From: Ranitomeya imitator
Lineage: Eukaryota
Length of the DNA stretch: 64,000 nt
Assembly (NCBI RefSeq): GCF_032444005.1
Contig: NC_091282.1
Location: 644,800,001-644,864,000 of the forward strand
Direction of reading: 5' to 3'
This document shows positions 17,363-58,879 of the stretch, piece by piece (positions within the stretch are counted from its first letter, which is position 1; every line of letters starts with the position of its first letter). The notes under the pieces are model-generated. The model searched no databases, had not been told where the DNA came from, and was given only the letters and a program-made list of their open reading frames with translations. A program made the translations under genes and the position numbers.

Positions 17363-18181
17363 AGGGAACCTGTCACCCCGTTTTTTGAGATTGAGCTATA
17401 AATACTGTTAAATAGGGCCTGCGCTGTGTGTTCCTATAGTGTATGTAGTGTACCCCGATTCCCTATGTATGCTGAGAAATAACTTACCAAAGTCGCCGTT
17501 TTCGCCTGTCAATCAGGCTGGTCAGGTCGGCAGGGCGTGGTGACATCGCTGGTTCTTCCTCAGCTTTACGTTGGTGGCGTAGTGGCGTAGTGGTGAACAA
17601 GCAGCGCGCGATCTGCGCTGTAATCCCTTGCATCGGTGGGGGCGGCCATCTTCCTGGGGCCGCGCGTGCGCAGATCGAGTGCTCTGCTGCACGGGGCTTC
17701 AGGAAAATGGCCGCGGGATGCCGCGCGTGCGCATTAGAGATCGCGGCGGCCATTTTCCCAAAGCCGAGTTTGCATCTCGGCTTTGGGAAAATGGCCGCCG
17801 CGATCTCTAATGCGCACGCGCGGCATCCCGCGGCCATTTTCCTGAAGCCCCGTGCAGCAGAGCACTCGATCTGTGCACGCGCGACCCCAGGAAGATGGCC
17901 GCCCCCACCGATGCAAGGGATTACAGCGCAGATCGCGCACTGCTTGTTCACCACTACGCCACTACGCCACCAACGTAAAGCTGAGGAAGAACCACCGATG
18001 TCACCACGCCCTCCCGACCTGACCAGCCTGATTGACAGGCGAAAACGGCGACTTTGGTAAGTTATTTCTCAGCATACATGGGGAATCGGGGTACACTACA
18101 TACACTATAGGAACACACAGCGCAGGCCCTATTTAACAGTATTTATAGCTCAATCTCAAAAAACGGGGTGACAGGTTCCCT
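17363..18181. mobile_element. Near-perfect palindromic T2/Kolobok-like MITE (~820 bp)
   Basis: TTAA TSD (17359-62, 18182-85), AGGGAACCTGTCA termini, ~400-bp inverted arms; mirror-image 156-aa ORFs on both strands. Confidence 0.95.
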
Positions 18182-33589: not shown

Positions 33590-34172
33590 GTGACCTAGGG
33601 CCTAGAAAGAAGTGTCATTGACAGAGAATGAACACTGCCATGATAGCCCATATAGGGCAGAGTAAAAGGAAGCTTAGGATCCTGAACAGAGGATGAATGC
33701 TGCCGTAGTCGATCATCTAGGACCTAATAAGAGGAAGCCCATGATCCCAGAGGATGAACACAATCATAGTCGAACATCTAGGACCTAGTAAGAAGAATCC
33801 TGTGATTTCAGACAAAGGATGAACACCATCATAATTGAACTTCTAGGACCTAGTAAGAGGAAGCCCAGTATCCCAGATAGAAAGTGAATACTGCCTTGGT
33901 CAACCACCTAGGACCCCAGTAAGAAGAAGCCCATGATCCCAGACAGATGATGAACGCCACCATGGTCAACCAACTAGTACCTAGTAAGAGGTGCTCAGTA
34001 TCCCTGACAGAGGAGGAACACTGCTATTGTCGACCAACTATGGCCTAGTAAGCGTAAGAGGAATCCCAGGATCCAGGACAGAGCAGGAACACTTGCCATG
34101 GTCGACCATCTAAAACCTAATAGGAGGAAGCCCAAAACCCAAGACAGAGGATTGTGGGTGAGTGAATACTGC
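33590..34172. repeat. Degenerate ~60-bp tandem array
   Basis: Recurrent gatcccagaggatgaacac...catggtcgaccatctaggacctagtaagaggaagccc. Confidence 0.75.
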
Positions 34173-35825
34173 TCTAATCCACTATTCTGCAACATCGATA
34201 TTGAAGGTTGAGCAGACTAATTTTAGAGTATCCGAAAATGATGTGAGGAGGCAGTTTAAGTCACTTAACATTGGTAAAGCTGCAGGACCTGATGGACTCA
34301 GCTCACGTGTCCTTAAAGTTTGTGCAGACCAGCTGTGTACTGTCTTTACATGCCTATTTAATGGAAGTCTACAAACACAGAGGGTACCAGTGTTATGGAA
34401 AACTTCCTGTCTGGTGCCGGTACCCAAGACGACTTCTCCTGCAACCCTAAATGACTATCGTCCTGTAGCCTTAACATCTCACGCTATGAAGGCCTTGGAA
34501 AGATTAGTGCTTGCTCACTTAAGACTGAGGGTCAATGCTTTTATCGATCCCCTTCAGTTTGCCTACCGACATAGATTGGGGGTGGATGATGCTATCCTTT
34601 CTCTGTTACATAGGGTACATTCATTTCTGGAGACTGACGGAACCACGGTGCGAGCGATGTTCTTCGATTTCTCGAGTGCATTTAACTCCCTGCAGCCACT
34701 TTTACTACACAAAAAGATGACTGATATGAAGGTTGAGGAGGGGATGAGAAATTGGATAACTGACTACCTATCAGATCGGCCACAGTTTGTACAGATGGGA
34801 GCAGTGGTGTCAAGCAGATTACTGAGCAGTGTTGGTGCCCCCCAGGGAACGGTGCTTGCGCCCTTTCTATTCACACTGTATACTTCAGACTTTCAGTATA
34901 AATCTGAACTTTGCCACCTTCAAAAATTTTCGGATAACTCTGTGGTTGTGGGATGCATTAGGGGAGATCAGGGGGATGAGGAATATAGAAGGGTGGTGTC
35001 GAATTTCGTGGATTGGTGCAATGGTAACTATCTACAACTAAATGTTAAGAAAACCAAGGAGTTGGTGGCCAACTATAGCAGGATAAAGATGGAATGCTTA
35101 CCGATCACTATTGCTGGTCAGGAGGTAGAGCAGGTGGAGAGTTACAAATATTTGGGGGTCCATTTGGATAGCAAACTGGACTGGAGATGCCACTCAGAGT
35201 TTGTCTACAAGAAGGGGATGAGCAGACTGTATTTCCTAAGGAAACTGAGGTCTTTTAATGTGTGCAGCAAAATGTTAGAAATGTTCTACCAATCTGTAGT
35301 GGCAAGTGCCATCTTTTTTGCAATGACGTGCTGGGGTAGTAGTGTGTGGGCCTCTGATGCTAATAAGCTGAATAAGATTATTAAGAAGGCAAGTTCTGCT
35401 GTCGGCTGTAATCTGGACTCTTTTGGGGAGGTAGTGGAGAAAAGAACTCTGAAAAAGTGTATGGCAATTATGAACAATAATGCACATCCACTATATGAGC
35501 TATTCATGAGACAGAAGAGCACCTTCAGTAACCGGCTAATACTTCTGAGGTGTAAGAAGGAAAAATATAGGAAATCGTTTGTGCCAACTGCCATGGGAAT
35601 GTACAACAATAACATTAGGGTTAAACCACCAAGGTGAATGTCTACTTATTTCTCTACATTTCAGTTCACTTGTTGTGTATGTCCTATTCTAATGTATAAT
35701 GTTCTTCTGTCAACAAACTGTCATGTCAACTATGTAATTCCTTTATTATTTTTATGATTTAAGTCTTGCTGCTGTGATACCATAATTTCCCACGGGATCA
35801 ATAAAGTGTATCGTATCGTATCGTA
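34173..35825 (+). mobile_element. 5'-truncated Rex1/Babar-type LINE
   Basis: RT ORF, 3' UTR ending tttcccacgggatcAATAAAgtg(TATCG)3; splits a host repeat unit at actgc|catgg with a short ctgc duplication. Confidence 0.85.
34174..35637 (+). pseudogene. Non-LTR reverse transcriptase (ORF2 3' part), open frame but no endonuclease domain or true start
   Basis: KAAGPDG, LVPVPK, NDYRPVALTS, DPLQFAYR, FFDFSSAFN, GAPQGTVLAPFLFTLYT, QKFSDN (expected SDD), YKYLGVHLD. Confidence 0.9.
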
Positions 35826-35924
35826 CCTGCCATGGAGGGCCAAATTGGATGCCGAACCTAAGTAATTTTATTGTTTTTGCTCATCTAAAGTAATCATTAA
35901 TAAATCTTAACTTTATTCCAAGAT

Positions 35925-36800
35925 CTCCCATAACCCTCGGAACAGCCCAGCCAAACCCAACCGGACCAGAACACCAATCACAACAACCTGACAAAAGCCG
36001 GAATCAGGAAGATGGCAGACGAAGGCCAGGAGAGGTATGTCAGTGACTGGAAGAATGATATCATCAGCTCACAGAAACTGACCATGTACCGGAGCCTACA
36101 GAGAGACTACAGACTGGCCCCATATCTGGAGAAACTCCCGGACCCCAGAGACCGCCAGATCCTGAGCCGATATAGACTCAGTGCCCACAGTCTGGCCATC
36201 GAATGTGGCAGACACAGGCAGAGCTACAAGCCCAGGGAGGAAAGACTGTGCCAACACTGTGACCAGGAGGCCATAGAGGACGAAACCCACTTCCTGCTAC
36301 ACTGCTCCAAATACTCAGCAGTGAGGGACACTCACTTCAGGAGACTCTCACATCTCTTCCCAGACTTCATCACCATGAAGGAGGAAGAGAAAACATATAT
36401 CCTGCTGGGGGAAGAAGAGAGAGCAGTGGAGATAGCAGCGCGGTATGTGAGCGAATGTCATAGACTGCGAGAAAGAGAACTATGATGCCATGGACTATAG
36501 CCCCCACAATGGATCTGCCCCATCCACCTCCCCTATGCCATGGACTATAGCCCCCACCCTGGATCTGCCCCATCCACCTCCCCTATGCCATGGACTATAG
36601 CCCCCACAATGGATCTGCCCCATCCACCTCCCCTATGCCATGGACTATAGCCCCCACAATGGATCTGCCCCCATCCACCTTCCCTACAGCTCCTACCCAA
36701 CATCCCCACAGTCCCTATCCCTATTGCCTTTATACACTTGCTTTGGCAAAACTGATGTGTATCTGGTCCTGCCAATAAAGCTTCTTTGAATCTTGAATAT
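35925..36800 (+). mobile_element. 3' fragment of a second LINE (RTE-X/L2-CR1-like ORF2 C-terminus with CCHC finger)
   Basis: ORF 36012-36485 with YRLSAHSLAIECGRH...ERLCQHC...EDETHFLLHC; 3' UTR with 50-bp repeat x4; AATAAA followed by a ttgaa-like tail. Clade assignment tentative. Confidence 0.75.
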
Positions 36801-43814: not shown

Positions 43815-44512
43815 TCCTCACCAGATCTCCCTCTGCCTCCCCCGCCGTTACTTCCATGCCGTATAGATTTCCGGTAACGTTGTCAGTCCCTTCTACCAGG
43901 GAACACTAATTGGAACATTTAATCGTTATAATTAATCCCAGTTATAAGGCGGCAGTAAACGCGGGCTGACTTTTTGAAGCGATTAAAACGGGAGGTCAGG
44001 TCAGTTCTATCCGTTTGACGACGGGGCCTGCTCCAAAATCAATATGTTTCTTTCTCGTGCTCATTGTGTGCAGGAGCCGGACTAAAATGACATTAAATGT
44101 TAATTCCCCCAAATGTATAAAAAATAAGGATAACAAAGATAGGAGGATTAAATAATTAAGCAACTTTTAATTTGCGCGCAATATGGTGTTATGAAATATT
44201 TAGGGGCATGCAATGTAGGATGTGTGTTAGCAGCTGTCACTTGCAAGGATAATTTCTTTTCTTCTTTTTGTTTTTCAGATGATGGATTTAAGTCCTGGCT
44301 AAGAAGAAAAAGAGAAAAAATGTTTCTGAAAACTGTCTCTTTGAGTTAACTGTGCCGCTCATAATAGAAGTTAAGAATTTATATACCAGTAGTTGTTTCT
44401 TAAAGGGAAACTCCACTTAAACTCAAACTTAAAACAACCCCGATAAATGTCTCAAGTAGTCATCTTGCCTTGTGTCCTCCGTTTTCCTCCTGTGACATTG
44501 ATCACTTTTCAG

Positions 44513-44901
44513 AGTAGTTAGAAACACATGTGCACAACCGTTTGAGGTGCACGGGTAGGTCCCAAACCGTAATCAGCAAATAATACAAAACCCGGCACTC
44601 AACTTTGTGGTGTGAAGAAACGAAAGATTTATTATCCCAAATCAGAAAACGTTTCCGTCCCACCGGTGGACGCCGCGATGACAGCACCTATATAGGCTAT
44701 AACTTCTCTTTCTGGGTATCCAATACTATATTGGTAGCAACCTCCGGGCAGGCCATATAGCCACTTGAATCTATACATTGTCCAGTAAACGTTACTGATG
44801 AAGGTCCAACTGTGGGACCGAAACGTTTTCTGATTTGGGATAATAAATCTTTCGTTTCTTCACACCACAAAGTTGAGTGCCGGGTTTTGTATTATTTATT
44901 A
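44513..44901 (+). mobile_element. 389-bp hammerhead-bearing insertion with inverted tail copy (Penelope-like, non-autonomous)
   Basis: 16-bp TSD attgatcacttttcag (44497-44512, 44902-44917); 94-bp inverted repeat 44578-44671 / 44804-44897. Confidence 0.8.
44787..44835 (+). ncRNA. Minimal hammerhead ribozyme-like core
   Basis: CTGATGA-a-GGTCC-aactgtg-GGACC-GAAA-CG-TT; all core nucleotides present, palindromic ACGT stem III; stem I pairing is weak. Confidence 0.55.
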
Positions 44902-44999
44902 ATTGATCACTTTTCAGTCCTATGGTGAACAGTTGCTTTGATTTGTTTTTTTACTTTACGTGGTTCTTAAGGATCATTGCATTCTAACCTTAAAGGGAA

Positions 45000-47900
45000 T
45001 GCAGCAAAGTGTATTGTCCTCATCCTTATCTACGCAATGCGCATGTGCCCACAGGAATCCTCTCCTGGACACATTTTCCTAGTGCATAAATCAGTAAAGC
45101 AAGATGTTATCCCTCTGCTTCATCTGAACAATGCGCATGGGCTCTCTGGACACCTATCCCAGATTCATCTTTATGGTGTATTAATCATTAATCAAAATGT
45201 TCTGCCCTCAGCTTAATCTACGCAATACACACATGCCCTCTTGACTCATTTTTGGAAAGTAGAAATCAATAAAGCCAGATGTTCTGCCCTTGGCTTCATC
45301 TGTACAATGCGCATGCGCCCACTGGACTCCTCTTCCCGACTCACATTTGTGTGTCCCTTGGTTGCATTTGAGCAATGCGCATCGCATGCGCCCACTGGAC
45401 TCATTTCTAGAATGTATAAATCAGTGAAGCAAGTGTGCACATCCTTTGGCTTCATCTGAACAGTGCGTATGTGCTCACTGGACTCCTCTCCTTGACTCAT
45501 CTTTGTGGTGTATAAAGCAGTAAATTTGAGATATGCTACCCTCGGCTTCGTCTGAGCAATGTGCATGCACCCACTGGACTCCTCTCTCTGACAAATATTC
45601 CTAGTATATAAATGAGTGAAGTAAGATATTCTGCCCTCAAATTCATCTGCACAATACATATGTGCCCACTGGACTCCCCTCTCATACTCATCTTTGTGGT
45701 GTTTATCTGAGCAATGTGCATGCGCCCACTGGACTCCCCTCTCATACTCATCTTTGTGGCGTTCATCTGAGCAATGTGCATGCGCCCACTGGACTCCCCT
45801 CTCATACTCATCTTTGTGGTGTTCATCTGAGCAATGTGCATGTGCCCATTGGACTCCCCTCTCATACTCATCTTTGTGGTGTTCATCTGAGCAATGTGCA
45901 TGTGCCCACTGGACTCCCCTCTCATACTCATCTTTGTGGTGTTTATCAGAGCAATGCGCATGCGCCCATTGGACTCATCTCCCGGAGTCATCCCTGTGGT
46001 GTATAAATTAGTAAAGCAAGATTTTCTGTCCTCGGCTTCATCTGAGCAATGTGCATGCGCCCACTGGACTCATCTCCCAGACTCATCCCTGTGGTGTATA
46101 AATCAGTAAAGGAAGATGTTCTGTCCTCGGCTTCGTCTGAGCAATGCACATGCGCCCACTTCACTCCTCTCCCAGACTCACTTATAGTGAAAAAATCAAT
46201 AAAGCAAGAAGTTAAAGGGAACCTGTCACCCCGTTTTTTCAGATTGAGCTATAAGTACTGTTAAATAGGGCCTGCGCTGTGCGTTACTATAGTGTATGTA
46301 GTGTACCCTGATTCCCCATGTATGCTGAGAAATACATTACCAAAGTCGCCGTTTTCGCCTGTCAATCAGGCTGGTCTGGTCAGGTGGGCGTGTTCACAGC
46401 GCTCTTTTCTTCTCCAGCTTTCCGTTGGTGGCGTAGTGGTGTGCGCATGTCCAAGGTCCGAATTCCCTGCGCCCACGTGAAGACACAGCGCGCGATCTGC
46501 GCTGTTATCCCTTGCATCGGTGGGGGCGGCCATCTTCCTGGGGCCGCGCGTGCGCAGATGGAGTGCTCTGCTGCACGGGGCTTCAGGAAAATGGCCGCGG
46601 GATGCCGCGCGTGCGCATTAGAGATCGCGGCGGCCATTTTTCCAAAGCCGAGATGCAACCCCACCGATGCAAGGGATTACAGCGCAGATCGCGCGCTGTG
46701 TCTTCACGTGGGCGCAGGGAATTCGGACCTTGGACATGCGCACACCACTACGCCACCAACGGAAAGCTGGAGAAGAAAAGAGCGCTGTGAACACGCCCAC
46801 CTGACCAGACCAGCCTGATTGACAGGCGAAAACGGCGACTTTGGTAATGTATTTCTCAGCATACATGGGGAATCAGGGTACACTACATACACTATAGTAA
46901 CGCACAGCGCAGGCCCTATTTAACAGTATTTATAGCTCAATCTGAAAAAACGGGGTGACAGGTTCCCTTTAAGCTCTCAGCTATATCTACATAATGCACG
47001 TGCATCTATTACACTCATTTTTGGAATGTATAAGTCAGAAAAGCAAAATACTCTTTCCTTGGCTTTATTTCAGAAATATGCATGCACCCACTAGACTAAT
47101 TTCGGAAATGTATAAACCAGTGAAACGAAAGGGCACGGCTTCATCTGAGCAATGCAAATACCCCCACTGGACTGCTATCCGGGACTTATCTTTGTGGTGT
47201 CTAAATCAGTAAAGCAAGATGTTTTGCTCTCAGCTTTATCTGAGCAATGCGCATGTGTCCACTGCACTCCTGTCCCAGACTCATCTTTGTGGTGTATAAA
47301 ATCAGAAGTTAAGATATGTTATCTTCAGCTTCATCTTTGCAAGGCGTATGTGCCCACCGGACTTATTGCCTGGACTCATCTTTATAGAGTATAAATCAGT
47401 AAGCGAGATCTTCTAAACTCTGCTTCATTTACATAATGTGCATGCGCCCACAGAACTTATAACTCCTCTTTGTGGTGTATAAAGCAATAAACTAAGATAT
47501 GCTACCCTTGCCTTCATCTGAACAATGCGCATGTACCAACTGAACTCCTCTTCCTGACACATTATCATAGTGTATAAATCAGCAAAGCAAGATGTTCTAC
47601 CCTCAGTTTCATTTATGCAATATGTATTCCCCACTGGACTCCTATCAAACTCATCTGTGTGATGTCCCTTGGCTTCATTTGATCAATGCGCATGCGCCCA
47701 CTGGACTCCTCCCAAACTCATCTTTGTGATATCCCTTGGCATCATCTGAGCAATATGCATGCTCTCGATGGACTTCTCCTAAACCCATTTTTGTGATGTT
47801 TCTTTGCCTTATTTGAGCAATGTTCATGCACCCACTGGACGCCTCCCAAGCTCATCTTTGCTGTGTCCCTTGGCTTCTTTTGAGCAATGCGCATGCGCCC

Positions 47901-48200
47901 ACTGTACCTCTCCCAAACTTATCTTTGTGGTGTCCCTTGGCTTCATCTGAGCAATACGCATGTGCCCACTGGACTCCTCCCAAACTCACCTTAGTGGTGT
48001 CCCTTGGCTTCCTTTGAACAATATGCATGCGCCCACTGGACTCCACTGGATGCCTCCCAAGCTCATCTTTGTGTTGTCCCTTGGCTTCATCTGAGCAATA
48101 CGCACCTGCCCACTGGACGTCTCCCAAACTCATCTTTGTGGTGTCCCTTGGCTTCATCTGAGCAATATGCATGCGCCCACTGGACTAGTTTCTGCAATGT
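45000..48200. repeat. Degenerate tandem array of ~60-100 bp units
   Basis: ggcttcatctgagcaatgcgcatgcgcccactggactcctctcccagactcatctttgtggtg recurring; a homogeneous 60-bp sub-array at ~45660-45960. Confidence 0.9.
46216..46968. mobile_element. Palindromic T2/Kolobok-like MITE, same family as 17363-18181, with an asymmetric central deletion
   Basis: TTAA TSD (46212-15, 46969-72); same termini; right arm lacks ~130 bp next to the centre. Confidence 0.95.
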
Positions 48201-53215: not shown

Positions 53216-53994
53216 AAAAAAAATTCTGTCTTTTGCAACAAAAGACAAATCCACTTTAACTTTGCTCCAATCCAGTGAGTCGACGGAGGCGCAGTCGTGT
53301 GCTTCCTATAGTAAGCGGAGAAGATAAAACTCTTATTTTTTCAATTCTCCTGAATTGTTTGATGCACTTATTATTTTTAATGAATACAACAGAAATGAAA
53401 ATTAACTTACAGCGCCTGGAGGATCCTGCCACAATAGTGTTAAAATAAATAAGATTAGCATAAATAATAGAGCCGCCGCACTGTGCACAATAATCAATTG
53501 GACGCACGTACGCCCAGACTGTGCTCGGTTCTATACATGATAAAGGCTTAGGTCCCACAAAGTTGCCAAAAATTAAGTGGTCACCAGAAGTACGTGACAG
53601 GGAAAATGAAAAACTGGATTCATCACACCAAAACCTCACATTTTTCTAACACGGTCTGTGCAAGTGACCCGCTATCTTTGGTTAAATAAGCTAGAGACCT
53701 AATATCTGCCTCCTATAAAATAAATCACTAATATCAGAAAGAGGTTTTCGGAAATTGGCCAATAGGGGAATTTGACTAGAAAATTTAATTTTGCCCATAC
53801 GCAGTGGATTAATGTCTATGAATAAGTCTGTTTTGTTGGGATCGGCTGACAATCTAATGTGCAGGCGGTCTTCCTGGCTCTTCACACACAGTTGAACATA
53901 TACATTGGGAAAAAAGTCCAAGCCAAGTTACCGTATACCTCCTATGTAGTGGAAAAATTAGATGTGTAAAGATCCTATATCTTTTGTTATCGAG

Positions 53995-56900
53995 CAATGG
54001 TGACATCACTACAGGAGGACTGAGCAGTGGTGACATCACTACAGGAGGACTGAGCAGTGGTGACATCACTACAGGAGGACTGAGCAGTGGTGACATCACT
54101 ACAGGAGGACTGAGCAGTGGTGACATCACTACAGGAGGACTGAGCAGTGGTGACATCACTACAGGAGGACTGAGAAGTGGTGACTTCACTACAGGAGGAC
54201 TGAGCAGTGGTGACATCACTACAGGAGGACTGAGAAGTGGTGACATCACTACAGGAGGACTGAGAAGTGGTGACATCACTACAGGAGGACTGAAAAGTGG
54301 TGACATCACTAAAGGAGGACTGAGCAGTGGTGACATCACTACAGGAGGACTGAGCAGTGGTGACTTCACTACAGGAGGACTGAGCAGTGGTGATATCACT
54401 AAAGGAGGACTGAGCAGTGGTAACATCACTACAGGAGGACTGAGCAGTGGTGACATCACTACAGGAGGACTGAGCAGTGGTGACATCACTACAGGAGGAC
54501 TGAGCAGTGGTGACATCACTACAGGAGGACTGAGCAGTGGTGACATCACTACAGGAGGACTGAGTAGTGGTGACATCACTACAGGAGGACTGAGCAGTGG
54601 TGACATCACTACAGGAGGACTGAGAAGTGGTGACATCACTACAGGAGGACTGAGCAGTGGTGACATCACTACAGGAGGACTGAGAAGTGGTGACTTCACT
54701 ACAGGAGGACTGAGCAGTGGTGACATCACTACAGGAGGACTGAGAAGTGGTGACATCACTACAGGAGGACTGAGAAGTGGTGACATCACTACAGGAGGAC
54801 TGAAAAGTGGTGACATCACTAAAGGAGGACTGAGCAGTGGTGACATCACTACAGGAGGACTGAGCAGTGGTGACTTCACTACAGGAGGACTGAGCAGTGG
54901 TGATATCACTAAAGGAGGACTGAGCAGTGGTAACATCACTACAGGAGGACTGAGCAGTGGTGACATCACTACAGGAGGACTGCGTAGTGGTGACATCACT
55001 AAAAGAAGGACTGAGCAGTGGTGATATCACTAAAGGAGGACTGAGCAGTGGTGACATCACTACAGGAGGACTGAGCAGCGGTGACATCACTACAGGAGGA
55101 CTGCGCAGTGGTGACATCACTACAGGAGGACTGAGAAGTGGTGACATCACTACAGGAGGACTGAGCAGTGGTGACATCACTACAGGAGGACTGCGCAGTG
55201 GTGACATCACTACAGGAGGACTGAGAAGTGGTGACATCACTACAGGAGGACTGAGAAGTGGTGACATCACTACAGGAGGACTGAGAAGTGGTGACATCAC
55301 TAAAGGAGGACTGAGCAGTGGTGACATCACTACAGGAGGACTGAGCAGTGGTGACTTCACTACAGGAGGACTGAGCAGTGGTGATATCACTAAAGGAGGA
55401 CTGAGCAGTGGTAACATCACTACAGGAGGACTGAGCAGTGGTGACATCACTACAGGAGGACTGCGCAGTGGTGACATCACTAAAGGAGGACTGAGCAGTG
55501 GTGATATCACTAAAGGAGGACTGAGCAGTGGTGACATCACTACAGGAGGACTGAGCAGTGGTGACATCACTACAGGAGGACTGAGCAGTGATGACATCAC
55601 TAAAGGAGGACTGAGCAGTGGTGATATCACTACAGGAAGACTGAGCAGTGGTGACATCACTACAGGAGGACTGAGCTGTGGTGACATCACTAAAGGAGGA
55701 CTGAGCAGTGGTGACATCACTAAAGGAGGACTGAGCAGTGGTGACATCTCTACAGGGGGACTGAGCAGTGGTGACATCACTACAGAAGGGCTAAACAGTG
55801 GTGACATCACTACAGGAGGAGTGAGCAGTGGTGACATCACTACAGGGGGACTAAGTAGTGGTGACATCACTACAGGAGGACTGAGCAGTGGTGACATCAC
55901 TACAGGAGGACTGAGCAGTGGTGACATCACTACAGGAGGACTGAGCAGTGGTGACATCACTACAGGAGGACTGAGAAGTGGTGACATCACTACAGGAGGA
56001 CTGAGAAGTGGTGACATCACTACAGGAGGACTGAAAAGTGGTGACATCACTAAAGGAGGACTGAGCAGTGGTGACATCACTACAGGAGGACTGAGCAGTG
56101 GTGACTTCACTACAGGAGGACTGAGCAGTGGTGATATCACTAAAGGAGGACTGAGCAGTGGTAACATCACTACAGGAGGACTGAGCAGTGGTGACATCAC
56201 TACAGGAGGACTGAGCAGTGGTGACATCACTACAGGAGGACTGAGCAGTGGTGACATCACTACAGGAGGACTGAGCAGTGGTGACATCACTACAGGAGGA
56301 CTGAGTAGTGGTGACATCACTACAGGAGGACTGAGCAGTGGTGACATCACTACAGGAGGACTGAGAAGTGGTGACATCACTACAGGAGGACTGAGCAGTG
56401 GTGACATCACTACAGGAGGACTGAGAAGTGGTGACTTCACTACAGGAGGACTGAGCAGTGGTGACATCACTACAGGAGGACTGAGAAGTGGTGACATCAC
56501 TACAGGAGGACTGAGAAGTGGTGACATCACTACAGGAGGACTGAAAAGTGGTGACATCACTAAAGGAGGACTGAGCAGTGGTGACATCACTACAGGAGGA
56601 CTGAGCAGTGGTGACTTCACTACAGGAGGACTGAGCAGTGGTGATATCACTAAAGGAGGACTGAGCAGTGGTAACATCACTACAGGAGGACTGAGCAGTG
56701 GTGACATCACTACAGGAGGACTGCGTAGTGGTGACATCACTAAAAGAAGGACTGAGCAGTGGTGATATCACTAAAGGAGGACTGAGCAGTGGTGACATCA
56801 CTACAGGAGGACTGAGCAGCGGTGACATCACTACAGGAGGACTGCGCAGTGGTGACATCACTACAGGAGGACTGAGAAGTGGTGACATCACTACAGGAGG

Positions 56901-57940
56901 ACTGAGCAGTGGTGACATCACTACAGGAGGACTGCGCAGTGGTGACATCACTACAGGAGGACTGAGAAGTGGTGACATCACTACAGGAGGACTGAGAAGT
57001 GGTGACATCACTACAGGAGGACTGAGAAGTGGTGACATCACTAAAGGAGGACTGAGCAGTGGTGACATCACTACAGGAGGACTGAGCAGTGGTGACTTCA
57101 CTACAGGAGGACTGAGCAGTGGTGATATCACTAAAGGAGGACTGAGCAGTGGTAACATCACTACAGGAGGACTGAGCAGTGGTGACATCACTACAGGAGG
57201 ACTGCGCAGTGGTGACATCACTAAAGGAGGACTGAGCAGTGGTGATATCACTAAAGGAGGACTGAGCAGTGGTGACATCACTACAGGAGGACTGAGCAGT
57301 GGTGACATCACTACAGGAGGACTGAGCAGTGATGACATCACTAAAGGAGGACTGAGCAGTGGTGATATCACTACAGGAAGACTGAGCAGTGGTGACATCA
57401 CTACAGGAGGACTGAGCTGTGGTGACATCACTAAAGGAGGACTGAGCAGTGGTGACATCACTAAAGGAGGACTGAGCAGTGGTGACATCTCTACAGGGGG
57501 ACTGAGCAGTGGTGACATCACTACAGAAGGGCTAAACAGTGGTGACATCACTACAGGAGGAGTGAGCAGTGGTGACATCACTACAGGGGGACTAAGTAGT
57601 GGTGACATCACTACAGGAGGACTGAGCAGTGGTGACATCACTACAGGAGGACTGAGCAGTGGTGACATCACTACAGGAGGACTGAGCAGTGGTGACATCA
57701 CTACAGGAGGACTGAGCAGTGGTGACATCACTACAGGAGGACTGAGCAGTGGTGACATCACTACAGGAGGACTGAGCAGTGGTGACATCACTACAGGAGG
57801 AGTGAGCAGTGGTGACATCACTACAGGGGGACTAAGTAGTGGTGACATCACTACAGGAGGAGTGAGCAGTGGTGACATCACTACAGGGGGACTAAGTAGT
57901 GGTGACATCACTATAGGAGGACTGAGCAGTGGTGACATAA
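53995..57940. repeat. 30-bp minisatellite, ~130 copies, with 510-bp and 1741-bp internal duplications
   Basis: gtggtgacatcactacaggaggactgagca units; diagnostic variants recur at +510 and +1741. Confidence 0.98.
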
Positions 57941-58879
57941 CTATGAATTTGCATAATACAAGCTGCATAATGCATGTTTGTTTATTAAAATATTTCCATA
58001 GCAGAACTATCAATCACAGGACTAAAGACTCAGATTCATTGGACTGAAGGGAATCATTTCTGTCCCTCCATGCCGAGTTCTGTCAAAGGTGGGTTACCTG
58101 TGATATCAGAGTCAGTTAATGTGGCACCTGGTGACGGGAGCCGATGCAATGTCCTCCTCTGATCCCGGAATGTACCGGGTAATAAGACGGTGAGTAATGT
58201 GTATGGATATATTCATTATGGAAATCCAGGAGGGAGGCAGAGGTTTACGCGGGTGATGGGTGCGCACAATGCATAGTGTCCCTTTGATCTCACTACATTA
58301 AGCCCCTCATATCAAGTCTGCCTGTCACTCACCTTTCCCCCTCTTCCTCTGGTGCTTCTGACATCTCTTCCTCCCTGCAATAACCTAATGATTTCTCATC
58401 AAGCTGCCGGGGCCCGGAGCCTGGGCGACTCCTTTATTGGCTGTGACACCAATCTCAAAACAAATTTAGCACCTCATTTCGCAAACGATCAAATCTTCCA
58501 CCTCGATTATCCCGGCTGACGTGGGGACGGGAGATTTCCGCTTCCCAGGGAATAGCGGCGAAGGCCCTGCTGAACAGCACCGAGGATCAGGTCAACTACA
58601 GGGTAGAGGGTCAAACAACACAGGATCAAAAGCAGCTACAGTAATTAGATTGCAAGCTCCGTGGACAAGAATTTTCCACTATACTTTGTTTTACTTTTCC
58701 ATGAAATTGGCTGTAGCATCGGAGTTTTCTTCTTCCTATTGAAGCAGAGCTTAAAAACGTGACAACGAACACTCTGTGTCAGATATGTGCTCAGACCGGT
58801 TGTCACTTCCTTCCATCATCATTTCCCTTTATATCAGCAAAATGTAAGACAATTTTCTAGGGAAGCATACCACCATGGC

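Follow-up and report, generated by a model that had tools for sequence, protein, structure and literature searches.

What kind of insertion occupies positions 44497–44917 of the 64,000-nucleotide stretch of Ranitomeya imitator DNA analysed here (hereafter the window)? An initial annotation, made from the sequence alone, described a small element that carries a hammerhead ribozyme and an inverted tail between target-site duplications (TSDs), and proposed a non-coding, ribozyme-processed unit mobilised in trans, possibly an uncatalogued family. Comparison with other copies in the same genome leads us to a different reading: the insert almost certainly copies, as DNA and head to head, the triple-spliced 5′ leader of a Penelope-like element (PLE) with two ORFs. 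It covers the front ~310 bases of a Penelope-type element, with all three introns missing, and is composed as follows.

44497–44512, plus strand: TSD, left copy, 16 bp, an exact direct repeat of the right copy
44513: 1-nt filler
44514–44663, minus strand: inverted arm with the long end, running through exon 4 from that end to within stem II, with a substitution at 44656
44514–44577, minus strand: PLE ‘tail’, leader positions ~249–313, between the short and long 3′ ends
44664–44695, plus strand: leader exon 1, positions 14–45, followed in the parents by an 81-nt GT-AG intron
44696–44747, plus strand: leader exon 2, 52 nt, followed in the parents by a 90-nt GT-AG intron
44748–44791, plus strand: leader exon 3, followed in the parents by a 216-nt GT-AG intron
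44792–44897, plus strand: exon 4 to the short 3′ end (position 248)
44795–44827, plus strand: minimal hammerhead as defined in PMC4209133, with CTGATGA, an extra A, a 5-bp stem II, GAAACGT and U17
44898–44901, strand unassigned: 4-nt filler from the short end to the TSD
44902–44917, plus strand: TSD, right copy, 16 bp

The 16-bp TSD, the inverted arms and the hammerhead core all lie where they had first been placed, but several parts between them take on another meaning. The ~65 bp described as extra sequence are present, but belong to the element itself, being its 3′ tail in minus-strand orientation, and the supposed ~130-bp spacer consists of three spliced exons. The inverted arm is real; its true overlap with the sense arm, however, is ~86 bp (44578–44663 against 44812–44897, with the single mismatch at 44656), and the 94-bp alignment reported originally overruns the junction. 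Only one of the three mismatches assigned to stem/loop II is a substitution (44656); the other two are not ribozyme variants, because the alignment continues past the junction and takes in the 5′-most bases of the sense arm (44664–44671). A compensatory stem II change between the arms is thus ruled out in favour of junction run-on plus one substitution. The first 13 nt of the leader were lost at the arm junction, and exon 3, 45 nt in the parents, is one base shorter in the window. The sense arm is identical to the joined exons of locus L063 at 228 of 235 positions. As a whole the insert folds with a z-score of −19, which is not chance, and the frame from the hammerhead ATG ends after 11 codons, in agreement with the view that the unit is non-coding. 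No empty allele of this site was seen in the sequences examined, in which its flanks are uncovered.

The intron-bearing form of this leader corresponds to a pLTR of 1663 nt, which belongs to a two-ORF element and is found in direct and inverted copies. ORF1 is an open frame of 283 codons that starts ~30 nt after the long 3′ end (the end of the PLE tail, leader ~313, lies ~30 nt upstream of the first ORF1 ATG). ORF2, 827 codons from stop to stop, holds reverse transcriptase (RT) motifs, CxxCxxC and GIY-YIG; its RT matches Pfam RVT_1 at E = 1e-6 with 28.9 bits, slightly below the cut-off of 29.6, while Pfam gave no match for a GIY-YIG domain in the 827-codon frame, where the motif VYLIKC...LYIGET was recognised by eye. 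Both frames are open, and overlap in different frames, in the full-length parents L122, L123, L125 and L127, indicating that the family is young. The pLTRs are arranged in tandem and inverted, with the long end on one arm and the short end on the other, and their hammerhead has the core, the extra nucleotide before stem II and the palindromic ACGT described in PMC4209133. Judged by the RT with its C-terminal GIY-YIG, the pLTR layout and the minimal hammerhead, the parent is an EN+ PLE, so that both the Penelope-type origin and the autonomous partner foreseen in the initial annotation are borne out. A CX2-5CxxC motif upstream of GIY-YIG is described for Neptune and Nematis in the cited part of PMC8557442; the parent carries such a motif, CLHCAQC, by which alone we place it provisionally in the Neptune clade. 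In the parents, a TATA box lies 31 nt upstream of the common 5′ end of the copies, and three GT-AG introns of 81, 90 and 216 nt separate exons of 45, 52, 45 and 171+ nt. Some long copies have been interrupted by other elements, which we recognised by eye from translations: L063 by an RT-coding LINE-like fragment, and L064 and L065 by Tc1/mariner-like transposase frames.

Within its own genome (5.96 Gb searched) the family has hundreds of matches, including 887 first-look candidates of which 40 were scored. Our set of 101 spliced loci (113 fetched, less 4 duplicates and 8 unspliced) was picked by best similarity or from the first 100 junction matches listed, a choice that favours young, long copies. 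These copies have a common unit of ~313 nt, whose 5′ end is fixed and whose 3′ end falls at either of two fixed points. Exact junction matches numbered 220 spliced versus 75 unspliced, counted as arms rather than loci; the first 30 exon-4 matches comprised 20 spliced, 7 unspliced and 3 truncated copies, and in a search with the 3′ half of the unit, intron sequence broke into the unit or lay ahead of it at 8 of 30 loci. The introns are either all removed or all kept: 135 arms without intron 3 show neither of the other introns, and the 8 arms that keep intron 3 contain no spliced junction. Three loci (L081, L093 and L096) hold leader retrocopies in which exon 2 was skipped. All three GT..AG joints also occur in contigs of sequencing runs presumed to be RNA, although these joints say nothing on expression, as the joined form exists as DNA and the loose ends of the contigs match genomic flanks. 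In one such contig (run X6, contig 27), a cluster of A>G differences covers L123:3420-3702, over the long-hairpin region of two-arm copies; it could reflect A-to-I editing or an allele.

Spliced copies could in principle descend from a SINE-like element that arose once from a spliced cDNA and was then amplified in trans from its own loci. The unit is very uniform, at ~313 nt, two spliced haplotypes have no unspliced match among the 29 pLTRs examined, and non-autonomous PLEs are reported in Chlamydomonas in the cited part of PMC8557442. The window's exon-2 haplotype, however, occurs at 26 places, 7 of them unspliced, among which L136 and L137 (one insertion) carry it behind the end of ORF2, and three further spliced haplotypes, making four in all, likewise match intron-bearing pLTRs. 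This sharing favours repeated production from parent promoters over a separate master element. In addition, the copies have no TATA box and so no promoter of their own, their 5′ ends carry a fresh G and coincide with the start predicted for the parent, and exon-skipped isoforms require introns in the template locus. A tRNA- or Pol III-derived head found no support by eye, and Rfam returned nothing at gathering score for the window, the region or the full unit, neither a hammerhead nor a tRNA-type match; a missing hammerhead match is expected there, because this hammerhead is minimal. We consider a self-propagating element of this kind improbable. The distinct non-autonomous family suggested at first is instead the autonomous element's own spliced leader.

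The 5′ ends of the copies bear on the template itself. Among 166 arms, 120 begin at −2 to +16, that is within 16 nt of the start site predicted 31 nt after the TATA box, 45 are truncated further in and one reaches −19. Alignments that keep intron 1 behave differently, as none of 46 starts at +1 and nearly all extend past the TATA box (overlapping loci are counted repeatedly here). Where a non-templated, non-C base precedes +1, it is G in 41 of 43 copies genome-wide, an excess with P of about 1e-10 even at a 50% background, with the caveat that by eye about 7 of the 17 G cases among the examined loci may represent the opposite arm or snap-back. An extra G at the 5′ ends of L1 insertions reflects the mRNA cap, as presented in the cited part of PMC11702581, while terminal transferase activity can add G without a cap, R2 adding G and T (cited part of PMC13000458). 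We infer that the template RNA probably starts at leader +1, is capped and runs in the sense direction. The leader's 5′ end coincides with a predicted transcription start bearing a cap-type G rather than with a ribozyme product.

This bears on a hypothesis put forward for head-to-head PLE insertions in the cited part of PMC3846280, which proposes an antisense template, copied by self-priming, and leaves an unspliced sense template open. Palindromic junctions would fit that route, as would the all-or-none retention of the three introns in long copies. Yet the removed introns are GT-AG on the sense strand and the 5′ ends carry the cap-type G, indicating a sense RNA template for the short copies, and the long unspliced insertions have the same long and short ends and 11–20-bp TSDs in 8 of 8 tested. 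A general antisense origin is hence very unlikely; an antisense template for the long copies alone is compatible with the short-copy data.

How, then, did two arms arise in opposite orientations? The 3′ ends of the 166 arms fall into 79 long, 61 short and 26 other. The 65 two-arm loci include 45 that pair a long with a short end, none with two long ends and one with two short ends. A TSD of at least 8 bp (median 14) flanks 55 of these 65 loci; among the 36 single-arm loci, 7 have one and 29 have none. The two arms of a locus agree at 425 of 442 polymorphic sites (17 discordant sites, 3.8%), against a mean discordance of 32% for shuffled arms, the lowest of 1000 shuffles being 23%. Only 18 of 97 rare variants occur in both arms, indicating that the arms also diverge after insertion. 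Exon 2 is skipped on both arms in L081 and L093, while in L197 and L201/202 the two arms both end at the rare hammerhead site. The long+short pairing, the TSDs and the common haplotype and isoform suggest that both ends were primed on one sense RNA. An in vitro study of a lizard PLE lends this a biochemical counterpart, as both strands were extended there and two internal start sites bound the tail (PMC11167929). That both DNA ends of the break were primed on a single RNA is, on this pattern, probable.

Two arms could instead stem from two RNAs of one locus, from gene conversion or from fold-back of a cDNA, with the identity of the spliced leader unchanged. In support of these routes, the protein of the lizard PLE has been predicted to dimerise (PMC11167929), many junctions are palindromic and 17 sites are discordant. 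Two separate RNAs, however, would seldom both lack exon 2 or both be cut at the hammerhead, and gene conversion would not preserve a long/short asymmetry with distinct 5′ ends. Simple fold-back is ruled out at loci where neither arm contains the other: 17 of the 45 long+short loci, the window among them, have a truncated long arm and a short arm without the tail, so that neither can be a copy of the other. Taken together, these routes are rather unlikely, but they are the most serious competitors. Our overall explanation, a spliced PLE leader whose two ends were primed on the same capped sense RNA, is by comparison highly probable.

The sequence of events would be as follows. The RT/GIY-YIG protein would cut the target, with a 16-bp stagger for the window insertion, and the parent promoter, with its TATA box at −31, would make a capped RNA. 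Both target DNA ends would then prime on this same sense RNA at two fixed internal sites, RT starting at leader ~248 and ~313, upstream of ORF1, so that only the leader is copied. The trailing RT may displace the first cDNA, and the two cDNAs would meet near their 3′ ends by microhomology and be filled in. The resulting leader copies, having no promoter, are likely dead; new active elements would come only from unspliced read-through RNA that contains the promoter, which would account for the introns still present in working copies. As for the hammerhead, it is probably carried along as a passenger, cleaving only a small share of the templates.

The ribozyme itself is complete in the window, with CTGATGA at 44795, stem II at 44803–44819 and GAAACGT at 44820, and its cut is predicted between 44827 and 44828. 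A retrozyme-like origin, in which self-cleavage sets the unit and the RNA is circularised before being copied, draws on this complete core, of which N7 varies between families and the other bases are kept, and on three loci that begin at the cut site. Cleavage does not define the unit, though, as the 25-mer immediately downstream of the predicted cut has 334 exact matches and the cut-spanning 25-mer 319, nearly all arms crossing the site; by our count it is read through in about 95% of arms. None of the 101 loci contains a head-to-tail array, only head-to-head or single arms being present. H17 is U, and stem I, already noted as poorly paired, pairs poorly whether or not the RNA is spliced (about one base pair beside the core in the window) and is not conserved, so the structure departs from the canonical type I hammerhead, which has both helices I and II. 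The exon 3/4 junction of the spliced form, AAACG/TT, is moreover predicted to pair with the hammerhead's GAAACGUU strand (GAAACGU; 0.8–0.9; window 44787–44826). With all this, a retrozyme-like origin is hardly credible. Splicing might lock the ribozyme through this predicted junction helix; the AAACG/TT junction is not conserved in the second PLE family described below, where exon 3 ends differently, and the unspliced monomer is also predicted to misfold.

Three small head-to-head insertions (L197, L199 and L201/L202) begin exactly at the predicted cut site, matching the position of ~44828 first given for the window. A probe for ends at this site had 6 matches, of which 2 are substitutions and 4 are arms in these 3 loci, two of which start there on both arms, to within a base. 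Probes for the two neighbouring positions yielded just a substitution and, from one cut-site locus, the partner arm. From the sampled truncation rate, 0.24 cut-site starts were expected (P = 0.002, or about 0.01 by hand estimate when the denser truncations at 169–177 are considered). The three loci are a hint, not proof, of rare cleavage in vivo, and we regard the chances that the hammerhead is active in vivo as about even.

A second PLE family, 78% identical in exon 4, conserves the splice sites, the TATA box and the hammerhead core apart from N7, while most intron interiors are not conserved. The spliced junction predicted for this family has 13 matches at 9 loci (two of them a duplicated segment), 7 with TSDs of 14–15 bp. 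By these genomic matches, the second family makes the same kind of spliced leader copies.

Several known systems share parts of this behaviour. Neptune-type EN+ PLEs, as described in the cited parts of PMC8557442 and PMC3846280, likewise have an RT followed by a C-terminal GIY-YIG with an upstream CxxCxxC, a separate overlapping ORF1, a pLTR with a TATA/Inr-like start, a hammerhead, an inverted 5′ copy, a tail at one end and a TSD. Those papers stress intron retention, whereas here most insertions are intron-less and leader-only, and their tails measure 30–40 nt against ~65 nt here, with three leader introns. In PAc, a Poseidon of Anolis (PMC11167929), two internal RT starts also bound the tail, both strands are extended and uncut RNA is the main template; in our element, by contrast, these sites are located upstream of ORF1. 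Splicing is not mentioned in that paper, which found no reads at the hammerhead cut site, where three genomic loci begin here. The Drosophila virilis Penelope leader, in the cited parts of PMC2377424 and PMC4209133, has its first intron 45–46 nt after the start, as here, and an intron end that abuts the hammerhead, so that helix I differs between spliced and unspliced forms; it differs in having one intron and an internal TATA-less promoter, and spliced genomic copies are not described in those parts.

Twin priming and processed pseudogenes of L1 resemble the present copies in spliced cDNA, a cap-derived G, 5′ inversion and a discrete TSD (cited part of PMC11702581). Unlike L1, poly(A) priming is absent here and both primings occur at fixed sites; the arms abut in L1 and overlap by up to ~245 nt here. 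The non-LTR retrozymes of metazoans, in the cited part of PMC7229834, are also non-coding units of ~300 nt with a type I hammerhead, possibly mobilised by PLEs, but consist of head-to-tail repeats with canonical hammerheads and circular RNAs. Our literature search, whose scope did not extend to Arkhipova 2003, Evgen'ev and Arkhipova 2005, Repbase/Dfam or supplements, brought up no account of PLE leader copies that are spliced or lack introns. Within the literature searched, the element belongs to a known kind, but the form that dominates here is undescribed.

The window locus by itself is ordinary, one dead copy among more than 100. The leader copies as a whole preserve in the genome a record of templates that were sense, spliced and likely capped, in head-to-head layout, in numbers large enough for model testing, and bear on the question of sense versus antisense templates. 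Through them, the two internal start sites seen in vitro can be related to actual insertions in a genome. We lean slightly towards a joint reading in which PLE integration is twin priming at two fixed sites, with four corollaries. If true, a single step would account for the TSD, the head-to-head arms and the presence of the tail on one side only. Start sites near the mRNA 5′ end would make most insertions dead spliced-leader copies. Intron retention in active copies, whose significance is called unknown in the cited part of PMC8557442, would reflect nothing more than selection for read-through RNA that includes the promoter. Such by-products would account for many of the ‘solo’ minimal hammerheads in animal genomes, and the three cut-site loci would record minimal-hammerhead cleavage in vivo.

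Other repeats accompany the insertion in the window. A degenerate satellite with periods of 60, 67 and 95 bp adjoins it at 45000–48000, and a long short-period minisatellite with an internal duplication, open in several frames, occupies 53858–58044. At 17476–18068 lies a near-perfect palindrome of about 590 bp, of which the translations of both strands are almost equal, and open frames of 491 and 183 codons at 34162–36482 appear, by eye, to resemble a LINE reverse transcriptase.
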